48,693 nucleotides of DNA from an uncultured Devosia sp. Lineage in GTDB: Bacteria > Pseudomonadota > Alphaproteobacteria > Rhizobiales > Devosiaceae. Every line of letters starts with the position of its first letter. The stretch's first letter is position 1. Under the pieces are notes generated by a model. It searched no databases. It was given only the letters and a program-made list of their open reading frames with translations, and was not told the origin of the DNA. Shown in pieces: positions 4,350 to 38,421 of this stretch. The stretch lies in NCBI GenBank assembly GCA_964569865.1, contig CAZMVQ010000005.1, positions 1 through 48,693 of the forward strand. Reading direction: 5' to 3'. A program made the position numbers and the translations under genes.

Positions 4350-6443
4350 TTGTATGAAGGAAACTACATCCGGTTAGCGGATTTGCCTTTTAAATCAAAA
4401 ATTTACAAATCCAAGGTATTTTCATCCGTCGATAATTTCAGGGTGAGAATTTTGTATCCACTGGGTTTTTTTTCTAAAATATTTAGAATTGAGAAAGACA
4501 ATCATTTGCTGTGTGTTGCACAGTACAATTCAATTTCCCTGCTGGCTCCCCTGTTTTTCCTTATTGTCAGTTCGTCACTGGCGGCACTAGCATTTATCAG
4601 TATGGGGTTCGCCCCTGTATTTTTAACTATTGTTATTCCGTTGGTGCTGTTGGTTGGTGATCTGGTAATTTTTAATGGATTTCTTATCCCGCGCTCGGAT
4701 AGTTCGGTTGCTTATCCGCAACTGATTGTGAGCAGATTGCACATGACCATTTGGGGAGTGGCAGGGCTGGGAATGGCGCGAATTTTTTGGGCCACCAGTC
4801 TTTTGGCTTATGCTGACAGAGAAACCCAAGAGCTGATTGTGACCTTATTGGCAACGTCAACACTTGGGGCATCTTTATGTCTAATTCATTTGCGTGTAGC
4901 CGCTTTGGCTTTTGTTGCAATTGTAATGGTGCCCATGATTGCGTTTTTATGGCTGAGCGATGTTACCGTTTTGGTGGTATTGGCCTTTGTGTTGGCTTTA
5001 ATTACGGCTGTCGTAATTTTTGTGGCCAACCGTTATGGCATTGATTTTGCACGAATGACAATGCAGCGCCAGGAAATGGAAATAAAAAAGGCTGAAGCTG
5101 AACATTTGAGCAAATTAAATTTGAGCATCGCCAATCAGGATAGCTTGACCGGATTGGCCAATCGTCGTGCATTTATGACCCATTTGCAGGATTTGGTTCA
5201 AAAAGGAAACGCTTCATGTGAAGAGGGACTAGCTGTTGGTATTCTTGATCTGGACGGATTTAAGCAGATCAATGATATATATGGTCATATGGCCGGTGAC
5301 CGATTGTTGCAGGAGGTGAGCAAGCGGTTGACCTCCATTCTTTTTGGGAAGGTTTTTGTGGCGCGTATGGGGGGAGATGAATTTGGCATAATCGTCAATG
5401 ACGCCCGTTGTGATGAAAAACTTATGGCTCTTGGAGAGCGTATCTGTCAGGCAATGCAGTTGCCCTATACAGTTGGTGGATTTAGCGCAAATCTTGGTGG
5501 GTCTTTGGGATTTGCCCGTTGGGACAGTATTAAAGACAATGCGGAAAAGCTGTTTGAAAAGGCAGATTATGCGCTGTATCACGCCAAGAGTAACTCGCGC
5601 GGCGGAGTGATGATTTTTAATGAAAAGCACGCACACGCAATTAAACAAAATTCCAATGTTGACCGCAGGCTGCAAAATGCTGATCTGGACGATGAGATGT
5701 CTTTGGTATTTCAGCCAATCGTTGCCTCAGAAAATGCCTATACAATAGGTTTTGAAGCACTTGCGCGTTGGCGCAGTCCGATTCTTGGCTCGGTTCCACC
5801 TGATATATTTATTGGAGCTGCTGAAAGATTGGGCATAATTAATCGTCTGACCAGCGTATTATTGAAAAAAGCACTGCATGAAGCAAAAAAATGGCCGGAT
5901 AGTTTCTATCTCTCGTTTAATCTTTCCATGCAGGATATTTCCTCGCCTGAAGCGATGCTTAAACTTGTATCCATTATTAAAGCTTCAGGATTTGATCCCA
6001 AGAGAATTACCTTTGAAGTGACGGAAACTTCAATCATGAGCGATTGTGAACGAGCTACGGAATCCTTGAATTTTCTAAAAAGCCTTGGGGCAAAAATTGC
6101 TTTGGATGATTTTGGAACAGGTTATTCCTCTTTGGCCTACATCCGGGATATGCCGCTGGACAAGCTAAAGTTGGATCGGGCGTTTGTAGGGGGGATCGAT
6201 GCTGATGAAAATGCAGCAGCGATTGTGCAGGCGATGATAAACATGTGTTGGAACCTTAAAATTGACTGTATTGTTGAGGGAGTTGAAACCAGATCACAGT
6301 TCAAGGCGCTTGGGGCGATGGGGTGCAATATTTTTCAGGGATATTATTTTTCCAGACCGTTAGAGAGCGATGATGCGCTGGCATATGCTTTGACACAAAG
6401 GGCAATTGAAGAGGTAAGTGGCGAAAAATTTCATGTTTTGTAA
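4350..6443 (+). CDS. Membrane-anchored GGDEF-EAL protein (diguanylate cyclase/phosphodiesterase)
   Basis: 697-aa ORF with a TTG start, so the start is uncertain. The N-terminal ~230 aa are hydrophobic and multi-TM. It has a GGDEF motif (ARMGGDEFGII), an EAL motif (GFEALARW), and DDFGTGYSSL and EGVET. Confidence 0.9.
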   Translation: MYEGNYIRLADLPFKSKIYKSKVFSSVDNFRVRILYPLGFFSKIFRIEKDNHLLCVAQYNSISLLAPLFFLIVSSSLAALAFISMGFAPVFLTIVIPLVLLVGDLVIFNGFLIPRSDSSVAYPQLIVSRLHMTIWGVAGLGMARIFWATSLLAYADRETQELIVTLLATSTLGASLCLIHLRVAALAFVAIVMVPMIAFLWLSDVTVLVVLAFVLALITAVVIFVANRYGIDFARMTMQRQEMEIKKAEAEHLSKLNLSIANQDSLTGLANRRAFMTHLQDLVQKGNASCEEGLAVGILDLDGFKQINDIYGHMAGDRLLQEVSKRLTSILFGKVFVARMGGDEFGIIVNDARCDEKLMALGERICQAMQLPYTVGGFSANLGGSLGFARWDSIKDNAEKLFEKADYALYHAKSNSRGGVMIFNEKHAHAIKQNSNVDRRLQNADLDDEMSLVFQPIVASENAYTIGFEALARWRSPILGSVPPDIFIGAAERLGIINRLTSVLLKKALHEAKKWPDSFYLSFNLSMQDISSPEAMLKLVSIIKASGFDPKRITFEVTETSIMSDCERATESLNFLKSLGAKIALDDFGTGYSSLAYIRDMPLDKLKLDRAFVGGIDADENAAAIVQAMINMCWNLKIDCIVEGVETRSQFKALGAMGCNIFQGYYFSRPLESDDALAYALTQRAIEEVSGEKFHVL

Positions 6444-6563
6444 TTAAGTGGGATATGTCTGTAGTTGTTTTGAAATGTTGCACTTGCTCGTTGATTGAGT
6501 TAGCACCGAAAAAATATTTACTTTGCGCTTTAATCAAGCCGGGTAAAAACAAGGGCAGGGCGC

Positions 6564-6854
6564 ATGCGCTGGATAGCAATTTTTACCAATAAACCAGATA
6601 CTAAAAAATTGTTTGAAGAGCATTTTCAGGCTCATTTGAGCTATTTTGCAAATTGCCCCGAAATAAGTCTGGCCGGGTCAATTACTCCCAAAGGGGCAGA
6701 GCACAGCACTGGCGGCGTTTGGGTTATCAAAGGGTTGGATTATGATAGTGCAATGGTTCTCATAAAAAAGGACCCGTTTTTCAAAGCAGGAATGCGTGAA
6801 AAGATTGATCTTTATTCTTATCAAGTAGCCCCGCAATTTGAAGACCTGGTTTAA
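6564..6854 (+). CDS. YciI-like (YCII-related) small protein
   Basis: 96 aa. It shows a YciI-like pattern (H..HL.Y....., GG.WVIKGLDYDSAMVLIKKDPFFKAG). Confidence 0.75.
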   Translation: MRWIAIFTNKPDTKKLFEEHFQAHLSYFANCPEISLAGSITPKGAEHSTGGVWVIKGLDYDSAMVLIKKDPFFKAGMREKIDLYSYQVAPQFEDLV

Positions 6855-29771: not shown

Positions 29772-30383
29772 ATGTCGCCAGAGTTTTTCATCACCGCATT
29801 GATAGTTGTGCTTATTCCGGGAACCGGCGTGGTTTATACCATCGCCACCGGGCTGGCGCGGGGGCGGATGGCTTCAATTTTTGCGGCCACAGGCTGCACT
29901 CTTGGCATCGTGCCCCATATTCTTGCTTCCGTGTTGGGATTGGCGGCAATTTTGCACACCAGCGCGCTGTTGTTTCAGGGATTGAAATATGCCGGAGCTG
30001 CCTATCTGATCTATCTGGCTTGGCAGACTTTAAGAGAAAAAGGCCCCATCAGCTTCAAAAGCGATGATGTACGTCGCTCAAATATTGGTGTGGTGTGGAC
30101 AGGTTTTTTGATCAATATTCTCAACCCCAAACTCTCGATATTTTTTCTGGCCTTTCTGCCCCAGTTCGTGCCCGTTGATGCAGGCAATTCCATTGCGCAA
30201 ATGCTGATGTTGGGTTCAATATTTATGGCTATGACGTTCGGGGTATTTGTAATTTATGGTGCTTTTGCTGCATGGGCCGGGCAAAAAGTGCTCGGTAGTG
30301 CCTCGATTATGGGCTGGATGCGTAAAACCACAGCGCTGGTTTTTGGTGGACTTGGCCTGAGGCTGGCGCTGGCGGAGCGTTAA
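29772..30383 (+). CDS. LysE/RhtB-family amino-acid exporter
   Basis: 203 aa with six TM segments. It has the LysE N-terminal motif (LIPGTGVVYT) and NILNPK. Confidence 0.85.
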   Translation: MSPEFFITALIVVLIPGTGVVYTIATGLARGRMASIFAATGCTLGIVPHILASVLGLAAILHTSALLFQGLKYAGAAYLIYLAWQTLREKGPISFKSDDVRRSNIGVVWTGFLINILNPKLSIFFLAFLPQFVPVDAGNSIAQMLMLGSIFMAMTFGVFVIYGAFAAWAGQKVLGSASIMGWMRKTTALVFGGLGLRLALAER

Positions 30384-30387
30384 ACTC

Positions 30388-31023
30388 TTGGCGTTTCCTT
30401 TAGTTGAATTTTTAACAATTCTTGGCGCGTTTGGCATAGGGGCTATTTCGCCGGGGCCGGATTTTGCCATGGTATTGCGCCAGTCAATTGCCCATGGACG
30501 CAGTACCGCCATTATGACCAGCGCCGGGATTGCCAGCGCAATTTTAGTGCATGGAACCTATACGGTATTGGGGCTTGGGCTGATTGTAGCCCAGTCTTTG
30601 ATATTGTTCACAATACTCAAGTTTGCCGGGGCTGCCTATCTCATATGGCTGGGCATTAGCGCTCTAAGGGCGCCGGCACTCAAAGAAGTCGCAAATTTTG
30701 ATAGTGAGCAAGAGGTCGGCCAAGGCTGGTTCAAGGCGTTTTCAATTGGATTTTTGACCAACCTGCTAAACCCCAAGGCAGTGCTGTTTTTTGTGGCTTT
30801 GTTTTCGGTTCTGGTTAGCGCCCAAACGGCAATAATATGGCAGGGGGTCTATATAATTTCTATGGCGGTAATGTTGCTGATCTGGTTTGTTCTTGTGTCG
30901 CTGTTTTTCACCGCTCCCAACATTAGAGCCAAATTTTATCGCATGGGTAAATGGTTTAACCGGATCAGCGGATTGGCGTTGATTTTGTTGGCTCTGAGGC
31001 TTTTGGTCTCTCAGCGCCAATAG
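30388..31023 (+). CDS. LysE/RhtB-family amino-acid exporter (second, tandem)
   Basis: 211 aa with a TTG start. It has ISPGPDF and NLLNPKA motifs. It starts 5 nt after the preceding LysE gene. Confidence 0.8.
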   Translation: MAFPLVEFLTILGAFGIGAISPGPDFAMVLRQSIAHGRSTAIMTSAGIASAILVHGTYTVLGLGLIVAQSLILFTILKFAGAAYLIWLGISALRAPALKEVANFDSEQEVGQGWFKAFSIGFLTNLLNPKAVLFFVALFSVLVSAQTAIIWQGVYIISMAVMLLIWFVLVSLFFTAPNIRAKFYRMGKWFNRISGLALILLALRLLVSQRQ

Positions 31024-32562: not shown

Positions 32563-32603
32563 AAAAAAAGCCGGAACCTTTTAGCAAGGTTCCGGCTTTT
32601 TTG
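32563..32603. terminator. Bidirectional rho-independent terminator
   Basis: It reads aaaaaaAGCCGGAACCTTttagcAAGGTTCCGGCTttttt. The stem is a perfect 12-13 bp, flanked by an A-run and a T-run. It lies between the convergent lpdA and repeat-protein genes. Confidence 0.88.
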
Positions 32604-32621
32604 TGATTATTATAACTGGTG

Positions 32622-35600
32622 CTAAATCAGAGTTATATTACCGTTTTCAAACAGGGTTTGACAATCTGTAGCATCCTTTAAGAGGTTAAGCGGCGATAGA
32701 GGAGAAGGGGCTGATCCTGGTCCGGCAAAGCGGGGGTCGTCACATTCCCCATCATTGGCCCAGACGCTTGTATCATCGCCAAAATTCAATTCTCCCTCGG
32801 TAGAAGTGGAGGGTAGAGTTGTAGTTTCAACTGCGGGTTGGTCAGTTTCTAATTGTCCACTACCCTGTACCAGTCGAATTTGACCCTGCTGAAAAAGTGC
32901 TGAGCAATCCGTGGCATCGCGGCCCAGATCGTCGTCAAGTAAAGTGCTCGCTACGCCCGGCCCGGCAAAGCGAGGGTCATCGCACTCGCCATCATTGGCC
33001 CAGCTGCTGGAATCATCGCCAAAGTCGATTGCCGAAGTCGAAGGAGCAGGCGATGAAGATCCAGCCTTTGGTTTTCCGGTTGCTACAATTTCGGTGCCGA
33101 ATTCTATCTGGCCAATTTCAAAAAGCATGCGACAATCCACGGCGTCGTGGCCCAGATCATCGTCTAAAAGGATTTCAGCTGAACCCAGCCCAAAAAAGCG
33201 GGGGTCATCACATTCCCCATCATTGGCCCACTCTGAGGAATTGTCGCCATAGGCAATGGCGGCCAGTGTTGTATCAACGGGAAGCAAATAGAGTTGACCG
33301 GTGCGATATAGGGAGCTGCAATCGGCAGCGTCCTTGAACAAATTTTCTTCAGTGGAGCTGCCCGCTGCACCCGGCCCTGCAAATCTAAGATCATCACACT
33401 CGTTATCATTGGCCCATTCGGAGGTGTTTTCTCCAAAATCTAACTGCCCATCCGCCACGAAAAATACCTTGCCACGCTCAAATGCTGTGCGACAGTCGGT
33501 GGCGTCTTTGAACATGTCTTCATCCAAAAGTACGTCGGCCATAGCTTTGCCGCCAAATCGTGGATCATCACATTCATCATCATTGGCCCATTCAGAGCTG
33601 TCATCGCCAAAGCTGACAACCAAATCGCCGACAAAAGAAATTTCAGCGCTTGCAAATAGGGCGCGGCAATCAGTGGCATCGCGTCCAATATCTTCAGTTA
33701 GCAAAACCGGATCGGTTCCCGGCCCGCCAAATCTTTGGTCGTCACAAATACCATTATTGGCATAGTCAGAGCTGTCATCACCAAAATCGAAACTATTGGC
33801 ATGAACAGCTTTTATGGAGGATATGGATTTAAGCGAAGAACTTTCGGCTAACTCCAACTGCCCGGCTTCAAAAAGGGTGCGGCAATCGGTGGCATCGCGT
33901 TCACGATCTGCAACATCCATATTGTCGGCGGCACCCGGCCCGGCAAAGCGGGGATCGTCACATTCCCCGTCATTGGCCCAGCGCGAACTATCGTTGCCCC
34001 AGACAATTCCCGAGGAACCGGCACTGTCAGAGGGATTGTTTTCTACATTTCCCTGGTCGGGGGCGGCATCATATTGCACAGAAGCCGGATCAATTATGCC
34101 CAAAACTCCACCAACATAATCAATTTGTCCTGATTGCACCAACATCTGACAATCGGAAGCGTCACGGCCAAAATTCCTGGGATCCAGTTTGATTGCAGAG
34201 CCCGGTCCGGCAAATCGTGGATCGTCACACTCCCCGTCATTGGCCCACTCGGAACTGTCATCACCATAATCCACGTTGGCGCCGGTTATGATTTCAACCT
34301 TGCCTTCATCAACCAGATTTTTACAGTCGGTGGCATCACGGCCCAGATCTGTTGCGTCTAACTGAGAGGCCATACCAATGCCCATAAAGCGTGGATCGTC
34401 GCATTCTCCGTCATTGGCCCAGCGGCTGGTATTATTGCCAAAATAGGTATCCTGTTGCGCGGGCGTTGAATCGGTAGAGGCAATCAAATAGATTTCACCG
34501 CTTTCAAATAGTTGGCGACAATCGGTTGCATCACGGCCCAGATCTTCGTCAAGCAGAACTGATGCAACTCCGGGTCCGGCAAAGCGGGGGTCATCACACT
34601 CCCCGTCATTGGCATATTGATTACTGTCATCCCCAAAATCTATGGAAGCGGAATTCAAGCCAGTTGAAACGGTTTGGTCCTGGGGCTGGTAATCGGCCGC
34701 CAGATAGATTTGTCCACTCTGATAAAGGGTAAGACAATCAGTGGCATCGCGAGCCAGATCCTCGTCAAGCAATAATGAAGCTGTACCCTCGCCGGCAAAG
34801 CGTGGATCATCACATTCCCCATCATTGGCCCATTCGGAGCTGTCATCACCAAAATCGACGGAAGCAACGGCGGTGGTTTCGGTGCTTTTTACCAGGGAAA
34901 TGGATCCGGCCTGATAAAGGGTAACACAATCGGTGGCGTCATGCTCCAGATCATCATCAACAAGTTCTGTTGCCATGCCGGTGCCTGCAAAGCGGGGATC
35001 ATCACATTCTTCATCATTGGCCCACTGGCTGGTATTATCACCAAATAATATGCCATCGAAATCTATGATTTCCATGTTCGGGTCATCGCCCAAATATTGA
35101 ACTTGTCCAGCCAGAAACAGGGATTTGCAATCGTTGGCGTCACGGCCAATATCTTCATCCAGTAATAATTCATCGGTGCCCGATCCGCCAAAGCGCGGGT
35201 CGTCACAAATGTCATTATCTGCCCAGTCGCTGGTATTGGAGCCGAAATTAATATCGTCCACAATATCGGCCGGATCAGGCTTTAGAATTATATCACCAGC
35301 CAGAAAAAGCGTGGAACAATCCTGAGCATCGCGCCCCGTATCACCTTCCACCATATCAACTGCGGTGCCTATGCCAATAAATCGCGTGTCATCACATTCA
35401 CCATCATTGGCCCATGCGGAGGTATTGCTGCCAAAATCAATGCCTTCAACAATCAGGCTTTGTTGCTGGTCTTTTATACCTTTTATCTGGGCCGTCGCCG
35501 GACCTATAAAAAATGCAAGAGAGGCAATCAAACCAGCAATTACAGGGGCAGTAATTCGAGCGGCGGTAAATCTAGCGGGTATTGAAGTTTTCCCGCGCCT

Positions 35601-35666
35601 AAATCTATTGAACAAGCTCACAGACATTTCCTCCGGGTTGACTTTGTTTTTTAGTAGCCTGGCCAA
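32622..35666 (-). CDS. Large secreted acidic repeat protein (14 copies of a Cys-pair repeat of unknown family)
   Basis: 1014-aa ORF. The start is TTG 35666 or ATG 35627. It has a hydrophobic signal segment (APVIAGLIASLAFFIGPATA|Q). Fourteen repeats follow, with consensus [IV]DFGDDSSEWANDGECDDPRFAGPG.A..LLDEDLGRDATDC..L...G.I. Confidence 0.85.
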   Translation of the reverse strand: MARLLKNKVNPEEMSVSLFNRFRRGKTSIPARFTAARITAPVIAGLIASLAFFIGPATAQIKGIKDQQQSLIVEGIDFGSNTSAWANDGECDDTRFIGIGTAVDMVEGDTGRDAQDCSTLFLAGDIILKPDPADIVDDINFGSNTSDWADNDICDDPRFGGSGTDELLLDEDIGRDANDCKSLFLAGQVQYLGDDPNMEIIDFDGILFGDNTSQWANDEECDDPRFAGTGMATELVDDDLEHDATDCVTLYQAGSISLVKSTETTAVASVDFGDDSSEWANDGECDDPRFAGEGTASLLLDEDLARDATDCLTLYQSGQIYLAADYQPQDQTVSTGLNSASIDFGDDSNQYANDGECDDPRFAGPGVASVLLDEDLGRDATDCRQLFESGEIYLIASTDSTPAQQDTYFGNNTSRWANDGECDDPRFMGIGMASQLDATDLGRDATDCKNLVDEGKVEIITGANVDYGDDSSEWANDGECDDPRFAGPGSAIKLDPRNFGRDASDCQMLVQSGQIDYVGGVLGIIDPASVQYDAAPDQGNVENNPSDSAGSSGIVWGNDSSRWANDGECDDPRFAGPGAADNMDVADRERDATDCRTLFEAGQLELAESSSLKSISSIKAVHANSFDFGDDSSDYANNGICDDQRFGGPGTDPVLLTEDIGRDATDCRALFASAEISFVGDLVVSFGDDSSEWANDDECDDPRFGGKAMADVLLDEDMFKDATDCRTAFERGKVFFVADGQLDFGENTSEWANDNECDDLRFAGPGAAGSSTEENLFKDAADCSSLYRTGQLYLLPVDTTLAAIAYGDNSSEWANDGECDDPRFFGLGSAEILLDDDLGHDAVDCRMLFEIGQIEFGTEIVATGKPKAGSSSPAPSTSAIDFGDDSSSWANDGECDDPRFAGPGVASTLLDDDLGRDATDCSALFQQGQIRLVQGSGQLETDQPAVETTTLPSTSTEGELNFGDDTSVWANDGECDDPRFAGPGSAPSPLSPLNLLKDATDCQTLFENGNITLI
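32625..35441 (-). repeat. Intragenic array of 14 diverged ~58-90-codon repeats
   Basis: The DNA core ggrtcrtcacaytcnccrtcattggccca recurs along the + strand. Protein repeat boundaries were assigned by eye, from aa 76 to the C-terminus. Confidence 0.85.
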
Positions 35667-35817: not shown

Positions 35818-36783
35818 TTAATGCCGTGTTGATGCTGATTTGCCTGTTTTGTTTGCGGCTGCCTCTATGCGAGTGAATGCAAAAATTCCAATCAGGACCA
35901 TGGCAGCTCCCATTGCGTGCCAGATGCTAAAAACCTCTCCAAGAATGCCCACTGCCAAAGCAATGGTGACAAGGGGGGAAATATTGCCAATAACCGCAGT
36001 GGCCTGCGCCCCGATCATGCCGATGGCAGTGGCAATCAGGTAGGCGGGTAAAACCGTTGAAACAGTGCCCATGGCCAGCATCAGCCACATGGCGTATTGA
36101 GAAACCATCAGTTCGCTTACGGGGTTGGTGAGGGCAAACTGGATCATAACAACTATTCCGGCCGCGCTCATGGCAATTGAGGTAAACAGTCTTGCCCCCA
36201 TCTCATCAATCAGCGGTTTGGCAAGAATTTGATAGATCGCATAGGCAATGGCCGCGCCAAGCACCAGCAGTGACCCGATGATTACCCCCGACCCGTCAAT
36301 GCCCAGATCGCGCCAAAAAATCAGACCAAGTCCAAAATAACTCAACAGCAGCGAGGCGATAAGTTTTACGCTTAAGGGACGTCGATAAATGGCAGCACTT
36401 ATTAGCACCACGAAAATTGGCGAAGTCATCAAAATCAGCCGGTCGAGCTGGGCGGTGATATATTCAAGCCCTGCGAAATCCAGATACGAGGCCAGATAAT
36501 AACCGATGGTTCCCACCCCGATGGTTTTGAGAATTGAAGCTCGCGGCACATGAAAATCAGGGTTTTTAAGTTTTCTGCTGCGATAACCAAGCCAGCCGAT
36601 CAGTGCAAAAACCGGAACCGCAATAATCATGCGCCATGTAAGCGTGGTTAATGCGCCAACCCCCTCCATCAGGGCAAGTTTGATTACTATGCCTTTGGTG
36701 GCGAAAAACGAAGCACCAAGAGCGCCAACAAAATATCCCGCAAGGGGATGAATAGTGGCTGATTTTATCAGCGATTTTAACAT
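35818..36783 (-). CDS. EamA/DMT-family permease
   Basis: About 321 aa from ATG 36783 (the track ORF starts at TTG 36795). It has ten hydrophobic segments and a duplicated EamA architecture. Confidence 0.85.
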   Translation of the reverse strand: MLKSLIKSATIHPLAGYFVGALGASFFATKGIVIKLALMEGVGALTTLTWRMIIAVPVFALIGWLGYRSRKLKNPDFHVPRASILKTIGVGTIGYYLASYLDFAGLEYITAQLDRLILMTSPIFVVLISAAIYRRPLSVKLIASLLLSYFGLGLIFWRDLGIDGSGVIIGSLLVLGAAIAYAIYQILAKPLIDEMGARLFTSIAMSAAGIVVMIQFALTNPVSELMVSQYAMWLMLAMGTVSTVLPAYLIATAIGMIGAQATAVIGNISPLVTIALAVGILGEVFSIWHAMGAAMVLIGIFAFTRIEAAANKTGKSASTRH

Positions 36784-36938
36784 GATTTGTGGCAATTCAG
36801 CTGGCTTATAAAAGATCAGGCAAGCATATTTGCTTTTAAAAAAAAGCCTGTGGGCATTGGCGTTGTAGTCAGGCCGAATTAACTTAACAATTACAACGCC
36901 AAAGCCGCTATAATGGCCAAGGCTATGCCCTTAGATCT

Positions 36939-37373
36939 CTATCGCAGATATATAGATCCCGCCTGATAAAGCGAGCGACAATCAGAAGCGTCACGATGTC
37001 TGTCCTCGTCCAGCAGCACATCAGCCATTCCTCTTCCGCCAAAACGTGGATCGTCACATTCCCCGTCATAGGCCCACTCTGACGAATTGTTGCCAAAATC
37101 AATTCCGCCTTTAGAATTGCCGCCAAGCTGATAAATCATCCCTTTGTTAAGAAGGTTACGGCAGTCTTGAGCATCGCGGCCAATATCTTCATCTAGAAGC
37201 ACATCAGCCATTCCTCTTCCACCAAAGCGTGGATCGTCACATTCCCCGTCATAGGCCCATTCTGATGAATTGTTGCCAAAATTGATATCAGAGGCGAAAG
37301 AATAGGGGGTAGCGAAAGAAATAATTGCCAGAATCAGCAAAGCGGCGCGAACCGGATTTTTCCACATATACAT
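36939..37373 (-). CDS. Small secreted two-repeat paralog of the large repeat protein
   Basis: ATG 37373 has GGGAGA 10 nt upstream. It has a signal peptide (MYMWKNPVRAALLILAIISFATPYSFA|SD). Two copies of FGNNSSEWAYDGECDDPRFGGRGMADVLLDED..RDA.DC follow. The track ORF (to 37832) runs into xerC and was trimmed. Confidence 0.75.
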   Translation of the reverse strand: MYMWKNPVRAALLILAIISFATPYSFASDINFGNNSSEWAYDGECDDPRFGGRGMADVLLDEDIGRDAQDCRNLLNKGMIYQLGGNSKGGIDFGNNSSEWAYDGECDDPRFGGRGMADVLLDEDRHRDASDCRSLYQAGSIYLR

Positions 37374-37491
37374 AATATGTTGGTCTCCCAAACTGTTTTG
37401 CCCCACGCATTCTTCAAAAGATAACACATTGGTGTGGAGCCGGTCCAGTCGTATAAAACTCAGACAATCGCCCGGCTTAAGTCTGTGTAAT

Positions 37492-38421
37492 TTAAGCTCT
37501 TGGGTGAGCTTTTTGAAACTCTGCCAACAGATGCTCTGTGTCAACCTGAGTATAGATCTGGGTGCTTGAAAGTGAAGAGTGTCCCAAAAGTTCCTGAATG
37601 GTGCGCAAGTCGCCGCCATTGCCCAAAAGATGGGTGGCAAAAGAATGGCGCAAAGCATGGGGAGATGCCGATGGGGGCAGGCCGAGAGCCGAGCGCAATT
37701 GCACCATGCGCTGCTGAATAAGTCTTGGGGAAAGAGGGCCGCCGCGTACTCCGCGAAATATGGGGTCAGACGGTTTAAGATCAAAAGGACAGGCTTTGAG
37801 ATATTCTTCAATTGCGTTTTGAACCGAGGCAATTATGGGCACTATGCGGATTTTTGAGCCCTTGCCGCTAACCCTGATTGAAGCGCTATCAAGGTCGTTT
37901 GCTGAAATGGCAAGCGCCTCGGCAATGCGCAAACCTGCCCCATAACATAAGGCAAGCACCGCCATATCGCGGGCGGCAACCCAGGGGCGCTGTTCCAGAT
38001 TTTTGGTCATCGTGATGGTATCAAGCGCCTCGTTAGCGGTTAAGGGTTTGGGCAGGGAACGGGGGATTTTTGGTGAATTTATCAGATATAAAACCTGATT
38101 TGAAAGCAATCCAAGTCGCTCCAGATGAGAGAAGAAATTTTTCATGGCACTTAACTGACGAGCAAGCGAGCGGGTGCCAACACCATTATTGCGGCGCATG
38201 GCCATGAAAGCACGAACATCGCTTGTTTGGAGGTTCTCCAATGCATCAATGCTTACCACATCTCCTAGATGGGTAGCTAAAAACGAAGTGAACTGGGCCA
38301 GATCGCGCCGGTAAGAAACAAGGGTTTTGGGCGATAAACGCCGTTGACTGCCCAGAGTTTCAAGCCAGTCAATAATCCGGGTTTTGCAATTATCATCACA
38401 GGAAAAGTTAAAATCAGCCAT
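37492..38421 (-). CDS. xerC: Tyrosine recombinase XerC/XerD family (site-specific chromosome dimer resolution)
   Basis: ATG 38421 gives 309 aa. It has the catalytic residues in context (ARD..., HALRHSFATHLL, LGHSSLSSTQIYTQV) and a C-terminal HPRA. The xerC call rests on its position next to priA/atp, as in Rhizobiales (from memory). XerD is not excluded. Confidence 0.85.
   Translation of the reverse strand: MADFNFSCDDNCKTRIIDWLETLGSQRRLSPKTLVSYRRDLAQFTSFLATHLGDVVSIDALENLQTSDVRAFMAMRRNNGVGTRSLARQLSAMKNFFSHLERLGLLSNQVLYLINSPKIPRSLPKPLTANEALDTITMTKNLEQRPWVAARDMAVLALCYGAGLRIAEALAISANDLDSASIRVSGKGSKIRIVPIIASVQNAIEEYLKACPFDLKPSDPIFRGVRGGPLSPRLIQQRMVQLRSALGLPPSASPHALRHSFATHLLGNGGDLRTIQELLGHSSLSSTQIYTQVDTEHLLAEFQKAHPRA

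Follow-up and report, generated by a model that had tools for sequence, protein, structure and literature searches.

LDL-receptor class A (LDL-A) modules are small extracytoplasmic domains of about 40–50 amino acids (aa) with little secondary structure, in which an Asp/Glu cluster next to an aromatic residue cages one Ca2+ ion. They contain disulfides and are strung in tandem, like beads, on flexible linkers. Here we describe a module of similar general character, with one predicted disulfide, in a protein of an uncultured Devosia sp. (Devosiaceae). The gene lies on the minus strand at 32622..35627 of a stretch of 48,693 nucleotides (contig CAZMVQ010000005.1 of assembly GCA_964569865.1, positions 1 to 48,693), which in its entirety is called the window below. 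Its product carries 14 copies of the module, whose core is about 53 aa. However, LDL-A modules have six Cys in three disulfides, whereas each unit here has two, and an invariant Arg-Phe pair and a predicted helix at residues 44–52 are foreign to LDL-A. No similarity of sequence or fold connects the two: PF00057 was not matched at E ≤ 10, and neither profile searches nor Foldseek recovered an LDL-A module from the PDB. We read the repeats as modules of a new family, each locked by a disulfide and probably stabilised by Ca2+, that form a string of beads in the periplasm or outside the cell; we give this reading a probability of about 0.6.

Other described repeats share some of these features. 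Thrombospondin type 3 (TSP3) repeats are also Asp-rich, Cys-containing extracellular units, thought or known to fold around Ca2+. They occur in bacterial OmpA-like proteins, and our module too is found with OmpA and PG_binding_1 domains. They are only 13–23 aa long, however, with a DxDxDGxxDxxD motif and disulfides between repeats, whereas the Cys pair of the module lies within one domain of about 53 aa that has another motif; DxDxDGxxDxxD is missing from the consensus, and PF02412 was not matched. Excalibur domains are bacterial and extracellular, with an acidic Asp-Gly-x-Cys motif proposed for Ca2+ binding (DxDxDGxxCE). The consensus W-A-N-D-G-E-C-D-D of the module places its N-D-G-E-C-D-D motif in a different register, its length and conservation pattern differ, and there was no match to Excalibur in Pfam (PF05901). 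RTX repeats are acidic, Gly/Asp-rich bacterial repeats tied to Ca2+-dependent folding outside the cytoplasm, but they are 9-aa units that form a β-roll, lack Cys and depend on a C-terminal type I signal. In contrast, the 53-aa module follows a putative N-terminal Sec-type signal, has no nonapeptide periodicity and gave no match to HemolysinCabind (PF00353). Finally, PPC, PKD and PG_binding_1 domains are distributed much as the module is: in exported proteins they lie to either side of catalytic domains that are unrelated to one another, and their copy number varies. The module co-occurs with PPC and PG_binding_1. PPC and PKD are β-sandwiches of 70–90 aa without a conserved Cys pair, whereas the module is smaller, loop-rich and very acidic, and also forms long repeat-only proteins.

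The 14-repeat protein

A repeat profile searched through all six reading frames of the 48.7-kb window returned exactly 16 copies (independent E 1e-22 to 1e-28). Fourteen lie in the minus-strand open reading frame (ORF) 32622..35666 and two in 36939-37373, with none elsewhere in the window, which is the count given by a first-pass annotation made from the sequence alone. Numbered from the N-terminus, the cores in the long ORF, all on the minus strand, occupy 35283..35441 (repeat 1), 35094..35252 (2), 34893..35051 (3), 34701..34859 (4), 34485..34643 (5, the copy modeled with AlphaFold2 below), 34290..34448 (6), 34116..34274 (7), 33849..34007 (8), 33633..33791 (9), 33459..33617 (10), 33285..33443 (11), 33099..33257 (12), 32871..33029 (13) and 32628..32789 (14). 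The chain terminates one residue past the last core. The ORF encodes 28 Cys, all of them within repeats and forming 14 pairs. In 13 of these the two Cys are spaced C-x25-C; the pair in repeat 14 is spaced C-x26-C. The Cys count thus reproduced what the first-pass annotation had said of these residues. It had also described the linkers as variable and rich in Ser, Thr, Pro and Gln. They are variable (5–36 aa) and contain those residues, but their composition is a broader mixture of S, A, D, G, T, V, Q and P.

The copies are 38–79% identical to one another in protein and 47–72% in DNA, and Tandem Repeats Finder detected no DNA-level array. Copies this diverged, without a DNA-level array, are therefore old rather than the result of misassembly or recent amplification. 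The mature chain of about 955 aa is 15.7% Asp, with a net charge near -152 and a computed isoelectric point near 4; each 53-aa core contributes a charge of -6 to -12.

In the ORF list of the window, the reading frame at 32622..35666 begins at TTG 35666 and codes for 1014 aa, the length given in the first-pass annotation. The true start is probably ATG 35627, with GGAGG immediately 5' of it, or GTG 35621, the start of the 999-aa gene call in the sequence collection itself (P0001), and orthologs begin at an equivalent Met or Val. From either start the protein is about 999–1001 aa long, so the ORF stands and its length is corrected.

Conservation across genomes

A word-indexed search found 381 homologs of the repeat protein. 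An exhaustive HMMER search of 1.84 billion representatives, using a profile of 103 diverse copies, yielded 745 clusters at 50% identity with E ≤ 1e-3, and 301 of these reached E ≤ 1e-30. When one genome per species was scanned (185,579 species), 493 stretches were confirmed (alignment A1). Most belong to Devosia and other Devosiaceae, including Pelagibacterium; further stretches come from Hyphomicrobiaceae, Hyphomonas, Oceanicaulis, the Erythrobacter group, Rhodobacterales, Pseudohongiella, Woeseiaceae and other Gammaproteobacteria, with sporadic ones in Vicinamibacterales, Kofleriaceae and Flavobacteriaceae. The phyletic and repeat-number mapping that the first-pass annotation had proposed thus gave a family centered on Devosiaceae and scattered through other Proteobacteria, with a copy number of 3–17 across the 251 proteins examined and 8–17 among close repeat-only relatives. 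In the source databases these relatives are named 'hypothetical protein', or are named after their other domains.

The family signature is F-G-D-[DN]-x-[SG]-x-[WFY]-A-x-D-G-E-C-D-D-P-R-F-x-G-x-G ... D-A-x-D-C ... G-x-[IV]-x-L. All 16 copies in the window satisfy this CDDPRF-type signature, with two Cys about 25 residues apart, and the repeat consensus noted in the first pass was recovered. Residues G9, C21, D23, R25, F26, D43, D46 and C47 are strictly invariant in the alignment of the 103 copies (A2). Across 900 copies from 120 proteins, the same positions round to 100%, except R25 at 99%. Position 11 in these 900 copies is exclusively D (64%) or N (36%), position 18 is D in 90% and N in 9%, and position 22 is D in 95% and N in 3%. 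The Cys spacing is x25 in 723 of the 900. Conservation of the Cys pair in homologs had been singled out as a point on which the disulfide model could fail, and the pair is kept: 1429 of 1449 copies have exactly two Cys. The CDDPRF-type module is a real, conserved domain family.

Searches for described families

We compared the whole protein, its small paralog in the window, single repeats and the consensus with profile libraries. There was no match in NCBIfam (release 20) at E ≤ 10, and the sole match in Pfam-A (models to 2025, same threshold) was to PF24142, with E 0.1 and 13.8 bits against a cut-off of 27. PADLOC gave no match at E ≤ 1. Two profiles searched against PDB chain sequences at E ≤ 10 returned nothing credible; the only match, to 1hcn_B / 7fig_Y (E 0.45), aligns repeat positions 20–34 with the C-terminal CDDPRF of hCG-beta and was set aside as a chance identity of six residues. 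Full-text literature searches for the motif strings found no paper on the module, and general searches on secreted Ca-binding repeats of Devosia and on the architectures of prokaryotic caspase homologs turned up no description of it. The family therefore appears to be undescribed in the libraries searched, in keeping with the first-pass remark that the motif matched no repeat family.

A lead to PF17648 'Luciferase', the copepod luciferase domain, came from homologs P0035 and P0036, which reach a summed Pfam score of 48 bits. This score is made up of nine partial matches at profile positions 19–39, covering 21 of the 63 profile positions. We rejected the lead: the similarity resides in a lineage-specific C-terminal stretch (RDAADCRSLFEEGRIRLHPLF), and single repeats score 14–19 bits, below the cut-off of 23.7. 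Neither the window repeats nor the family consensus matched PF17648 at E ≤ 10.

Predicted structure

AlphaFold2 was run on repeat 5 with the alignment of 103 diverse copies as input. The resulting single-repeat model had a predicted local distance difference test score (pLDDT) of 93 and a predicted template modeling score (pTM) of 0.79, and all five models reached at least 90 pLDDT. Loops and short β bridges make up most of it; the one helix, at residues 44–52, starts just past D-A-x-D-C. A two-repeat model of the small paralog had pLDDT above 90 for each domain and below 50 for the linker, with pTM 0.53. Confident domains joined by a low-confidence linker at this pTM mean that the modules are predicted to be independent beads. 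The first pass had suggested modeling one to three repeats; with one and with two, the module fold was predicted confidently.

Foldseek searches of the one- and two-repeat models against the PDB and BFVD found no neighbor at E ≤ 0.001; the best E-values were 2.5–6, with TM-scores of about 0.3 or lower. Because Foldseek is weak for domains so small, this null does not prove that the fold is new. Mutual information with average product correction links the FGD[DN] pair to the R-D-A-x-D-C segment, a weak signal given an effective number of sequences of 189.

Export and location

The N-terminus of the window protein (35490..35627, minus strand) resembles a signal peptide, as the first-pass annotation had stated. 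Judged heuristically, its n-region is basic, a hydrophobic stretch spans 19 aa, and A-T-A precedes Q60; the segment reads MSVSLFNRFRRGKTS...ITAPVIAGLIASLAFFIGPATA, with the residues IASLAFFIGPATA leading up to that Q. Signal-peptide-like N-termini are the rule among relatives: a crude heuristic of hydrophobicity, charge and AXA recognized them in 204 of 250, where they typically end in A-x-A just ahead of the first repeat. Tat export is unlikely, with the RR of the n-region about 15 residues ahead of the hydrophobic stretch and not kept in orthologs. A lipoprotein anchor is excluded, since all Cys lie in repeats and a lipobox is thus impossible. No autotransporter, RTX or other anchoring or secretion domain of Pfam was matched in the whole protein, and a sortase-type feature is likewise absent, which agrees with the first pass, where no autotransporter, RTX or sortase feature had been seen. 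We infer that the final location is the periplasm or the outside of the cell.

Domain architectures of the relatives

Most members of the family are repeat-only. A minority fuse 3–10 copies, on either side, to other domains. Fusions to proteases involve Peptidase_C14 (caspase-like, usually together with PPC), Trypsin_2 (S1, often together with PG_binding_1), Peptidase_S8 and Peptidase_M48. Those to other domains involve OmpA with PG_binding_1, SH3_3, ankyrin repeats, LCCL, DUF4189 and, in one case, a Ser/Thr kinase. Fusion to four protease classes as well as to cell-wall-binding domains makes a role in binding, anchoring or spacing more likely than one specific to the 14-repeat protein. Judging from these architectures, the module behaves as a mobile extracytoplasmic accessory unit.

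At one locus (L008, 5435-9124), a repeat-only gene of 707 aa lies 124 bp downstream of a gene for a trypsin-like protease without repeats, and this pair may represent the protease fusions in unfused form. The 707-aa gene is followed by one for a 284-aa protein with no Pfam match on record and then by one for a HATPase_c protein. The kinase fusion, P0227 (1388 aa), has its Ser/Thr kinase domain at residues 310–487 and five module copies near residue 926; the module would be an extracytoplasmic sensor part if a membrane span separates it from the kinase.

Another architecture is found in several dozen gammaproteobacterial clusters (P0081-P0113 and relatives). These proteins, about 610 aa long, have four module copies and, at the N-terminus, a region of about 200 aa. 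When two members (P0081 and P0172) were scanned, Pfam gave no match to this region. At loci L006 and L007, the gene for the ~610-aa protein (for example, 7001-8839 in L006) lies between a FAD_binding_3 gene and a DUF945 gene.

Genomic context and the small paralog

In the window, the repeat gene stands in the order sucB - LysE x2 - lpdA - repeat gene - EamA - small paralog - xerC - priA - atpH. The order atp-priA-xerC-(small paralog)-EamA-repeat gene-lpdA-LysE-sucBA is common to three other Devosiaceae loci, on two metagenomic Devosiaceae contigs and in Devosia nitrariae, where the syntenic repeat genes have 13, 8 and 8 repeats in 927, 603 and 560 aa. A conserved locus with varying repeat number indicates that Devosiaceae inherit the gene vertically while its number of repeats drifts.

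The small paralog (36939..37373, minus strand) encodes 144 aa with a signal-peptide-like N-terminus and two repeats (37131-37292 and 36939-37112). These repeats are 82% identical in protein and 75% in DNA; the higher identity in protein suggests purifying selection rather than recent duplication. The ORF list also has a 297-aa frame at 36939-37832, which overlaps xerC and is a listing artefact. In locus L003 the paralog has two repeats (a 144-aa ortholog, 6200-6634) and in L001 one (6516-6704); Devosia nitrariae lacks it.

Directly upstream of the repeat gene, on the same strand, is an EamA-family transporter gene at 35818..36795; it is a conserved neighbor in Devosiaceae. At the other end, between the convergent lpdA and repeat genes, lies a perfect-looking hairpin (32564..32602). 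Its stem is 17 bp long, an A-run and a T-run flank it, and it is likely a bidirectional intrinsic terminator. The two LysE-family translocator genes between sucB and lpdA are adjacent, at 29772-31023 on the plus strand. This slot holds one such gene in two of the related Devosiaceae loci and an unrelated 156-aa gene in Devosia nitrariae. Devosia nitrariae (L004, 2902-3388) also has a BrnT/BrnA toxin-antitoxin pair between priA and atpH, which is absent at the equivalent position in the window.

Discussion

According to our preferred reading, Sec would export a soluble, strongly polyanionic protein in which flexible linkers join 14 modules, each about 53 aa long and folding on its own. After export, the two invariant Cys, C21 and C47, would form a single intradomain disulfide, as a conserved Cys pair in exported proteins implies. 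The disulfide would link the acidic loop FGDD...DGECDD, on the N-terminal side, with the D-A-x-D-C segment and the helix on the C-terminal side, and the positions that are invariant or restricted to D and N would build one or two Ca2+ sites, giving rigidity to a module of little secondary structure. Positions occupied only by D or N are typical of Ca2+ oxygen ligands, as in EF-hand and LDL-A sites. Since the confident model is loop-rich and, like Ca2+-cage modules, has about seven oxygen-donor positions that are invariant or D/N-only, we regard stabilisation by Ca2+ as rather probable. Alone, in 3–17 copies, the module may form a polyvalent scaffold in the envelope or outside the cell; in the fusions with proteases, OmpA/PG-binding domains or a kinase, its part would be to place or direct the domains it is joined to. 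Our best guess for the 14-mer, a tentative one, is a polyvalent envelope or extracellular scaffold or binder. The first-pass annotation had interpreted the repeats along similar lines, as a possibly new Ca2+-binding, disulfide-stabilised domain of extracytoplasmic proteins with a hypothetical matrix, adhesin or ion-buffering role. The unmatched family, the Cys pair, the export-like N-termini and the lack of an anchor or RTX feature were all borne out, and nothing we found points to a described family, a missing signal peptide or an unconserved Cys pair.

Several observations pull the other way. The module contains no canonical DxDxDG, EF-hand, LDL-A or TSP3 pattern, and its core is so conserved that few positions remain to mark a conserved ligand-binding surface. 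The signal peptide was judged by a crude heuristic only. There were no secretion-system genes near the loci examined and no C-terminal signal for passage of the outer membrane. The neighbors in Devosiaceae are housekeeping genes, uninformative on function, and outside this family the gene context was not conserved at the loci inspected.

Fusions to four unrelated protease classes (C14, S1, S8 and M48), with the module on either side of the catalytic domain, raise the question of whether it is a docking, regulatory, inhibitor or decoy-substrate unit, with the repeat-only proteins acting as scaffolds or regulators alongside proteases. The repeat-only gene downstream of a repeat-free trypsin-like protease gene at L008 fits this idea, as do weak matches to the inhibitor families I78 and I36 in non-repeat parts of two fusion proteins. 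However, most members are repeat-only with no protease neighbor, there is no protease near the Devosiaceae locus, the module is also fused to OmpA, SH3, ankyrin and kinase domains, and Pfam scans found no similarity of the repeat itself to known inhibitor families; we consider a protease partner unlikely. The charge of the protein suggests another role, that of a calsequestrin-like buffer or sink whose modules chiefly hold Ca2+, Mg2+ or other metals in the periplasm or at the surface and bind nothing else. A net charge of -152, the -6 to -12 per core, the conserved acidic and D/N-only positions and the marine or saline origin of many relatives would all suit such a role, and the 8–17 copies among close repeat-only relatives look as if capacity mattered. 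Yet bulk buffering makes little sense for 3–10 copies fused to proteases, OmpA/PG-binding domains, a kinase or ankyrin repeats, and calsequestrin-type buffers use low-complexity acidic surfaces rather than conserved folded modules with invariant Arg, Phe and Gly. Buffering as the main function is thus quite unlikely. A bolder proposal combines a new Ca2+-cage fold with docking: the repeat-only proteins, this 14-mer among them, would be polyvalent envelope scaffolds of Devosiaceae and other Proteobacteria that recruit or restrain module-bearing proteases (caspase-like, HtrA/trypsin-like, subtilisin and M48) and cell-wall-binding proteins. Such a system might resemble cohesin-dockerin assembly but would operate in the periplasm or outside the cell, with just one kind of module, which binds either itself or a partner. 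We think both the proposal and the analogy very unlikely to hold.

The module could also be a diverged member of a known family of small Ca2+-binding or Cys repeats (LDL-A, thrombospondin type 3, Excalibur, RTX, dockerin or PF17648). The 48-bit sums of P0035 and P0036 on PF17648 speak for this, and W-A-N-D-G-E-C-D-D is loosely like the LDL-A acidic cage, W..CDG..DC.DGSDE. The PF17648 signal, however, is confined to a third of that profile, lies below the cut-off in single repeats and is missing from the window repeats. No Ca2+-binding repeat family of Pfam or NCBIfam was matched at E ≤ 10, the PDB profile searches gave only the chance CDDPRF of hCG-beta, Foldseek found nothing with a model of pLDDT 93, and the module has two Cys to the six of LDL-A. 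Such an origin therefore seems highly improbable. That the stretch is non-coding or misassembled, with a long ORF arising by chance, is a negligible prospect: only its repetitive nature favors this, against syntenic orthologs in independent genomes and metagenomes, hundreds of homologs, the lack of a DNA-level tandem repeat and paralog copies that are more alike in protein than in DNA.

If our preferred reading of disulfide-locked, Ca2+-stabilised beads is confirmed, what is gained would be a new domain family rather than a principle new to biology. Small disulfide-stabilised acidic repeat modules outside the cytoplasm are already well known. At 53 aa and pLDDT 93, the module is an easy target for structural and Ca2+-binding work. 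Confirmation would identify a conserved, syntenic envelope protein of Devosiaceae. In addition, about 750 protein clusters that are now 'hypothetical' would gain a name and a hypothesis to test; they include exported proteases of the caspase-like, trypsin-like and subtilisin types from marine and soil Proteobacteria.

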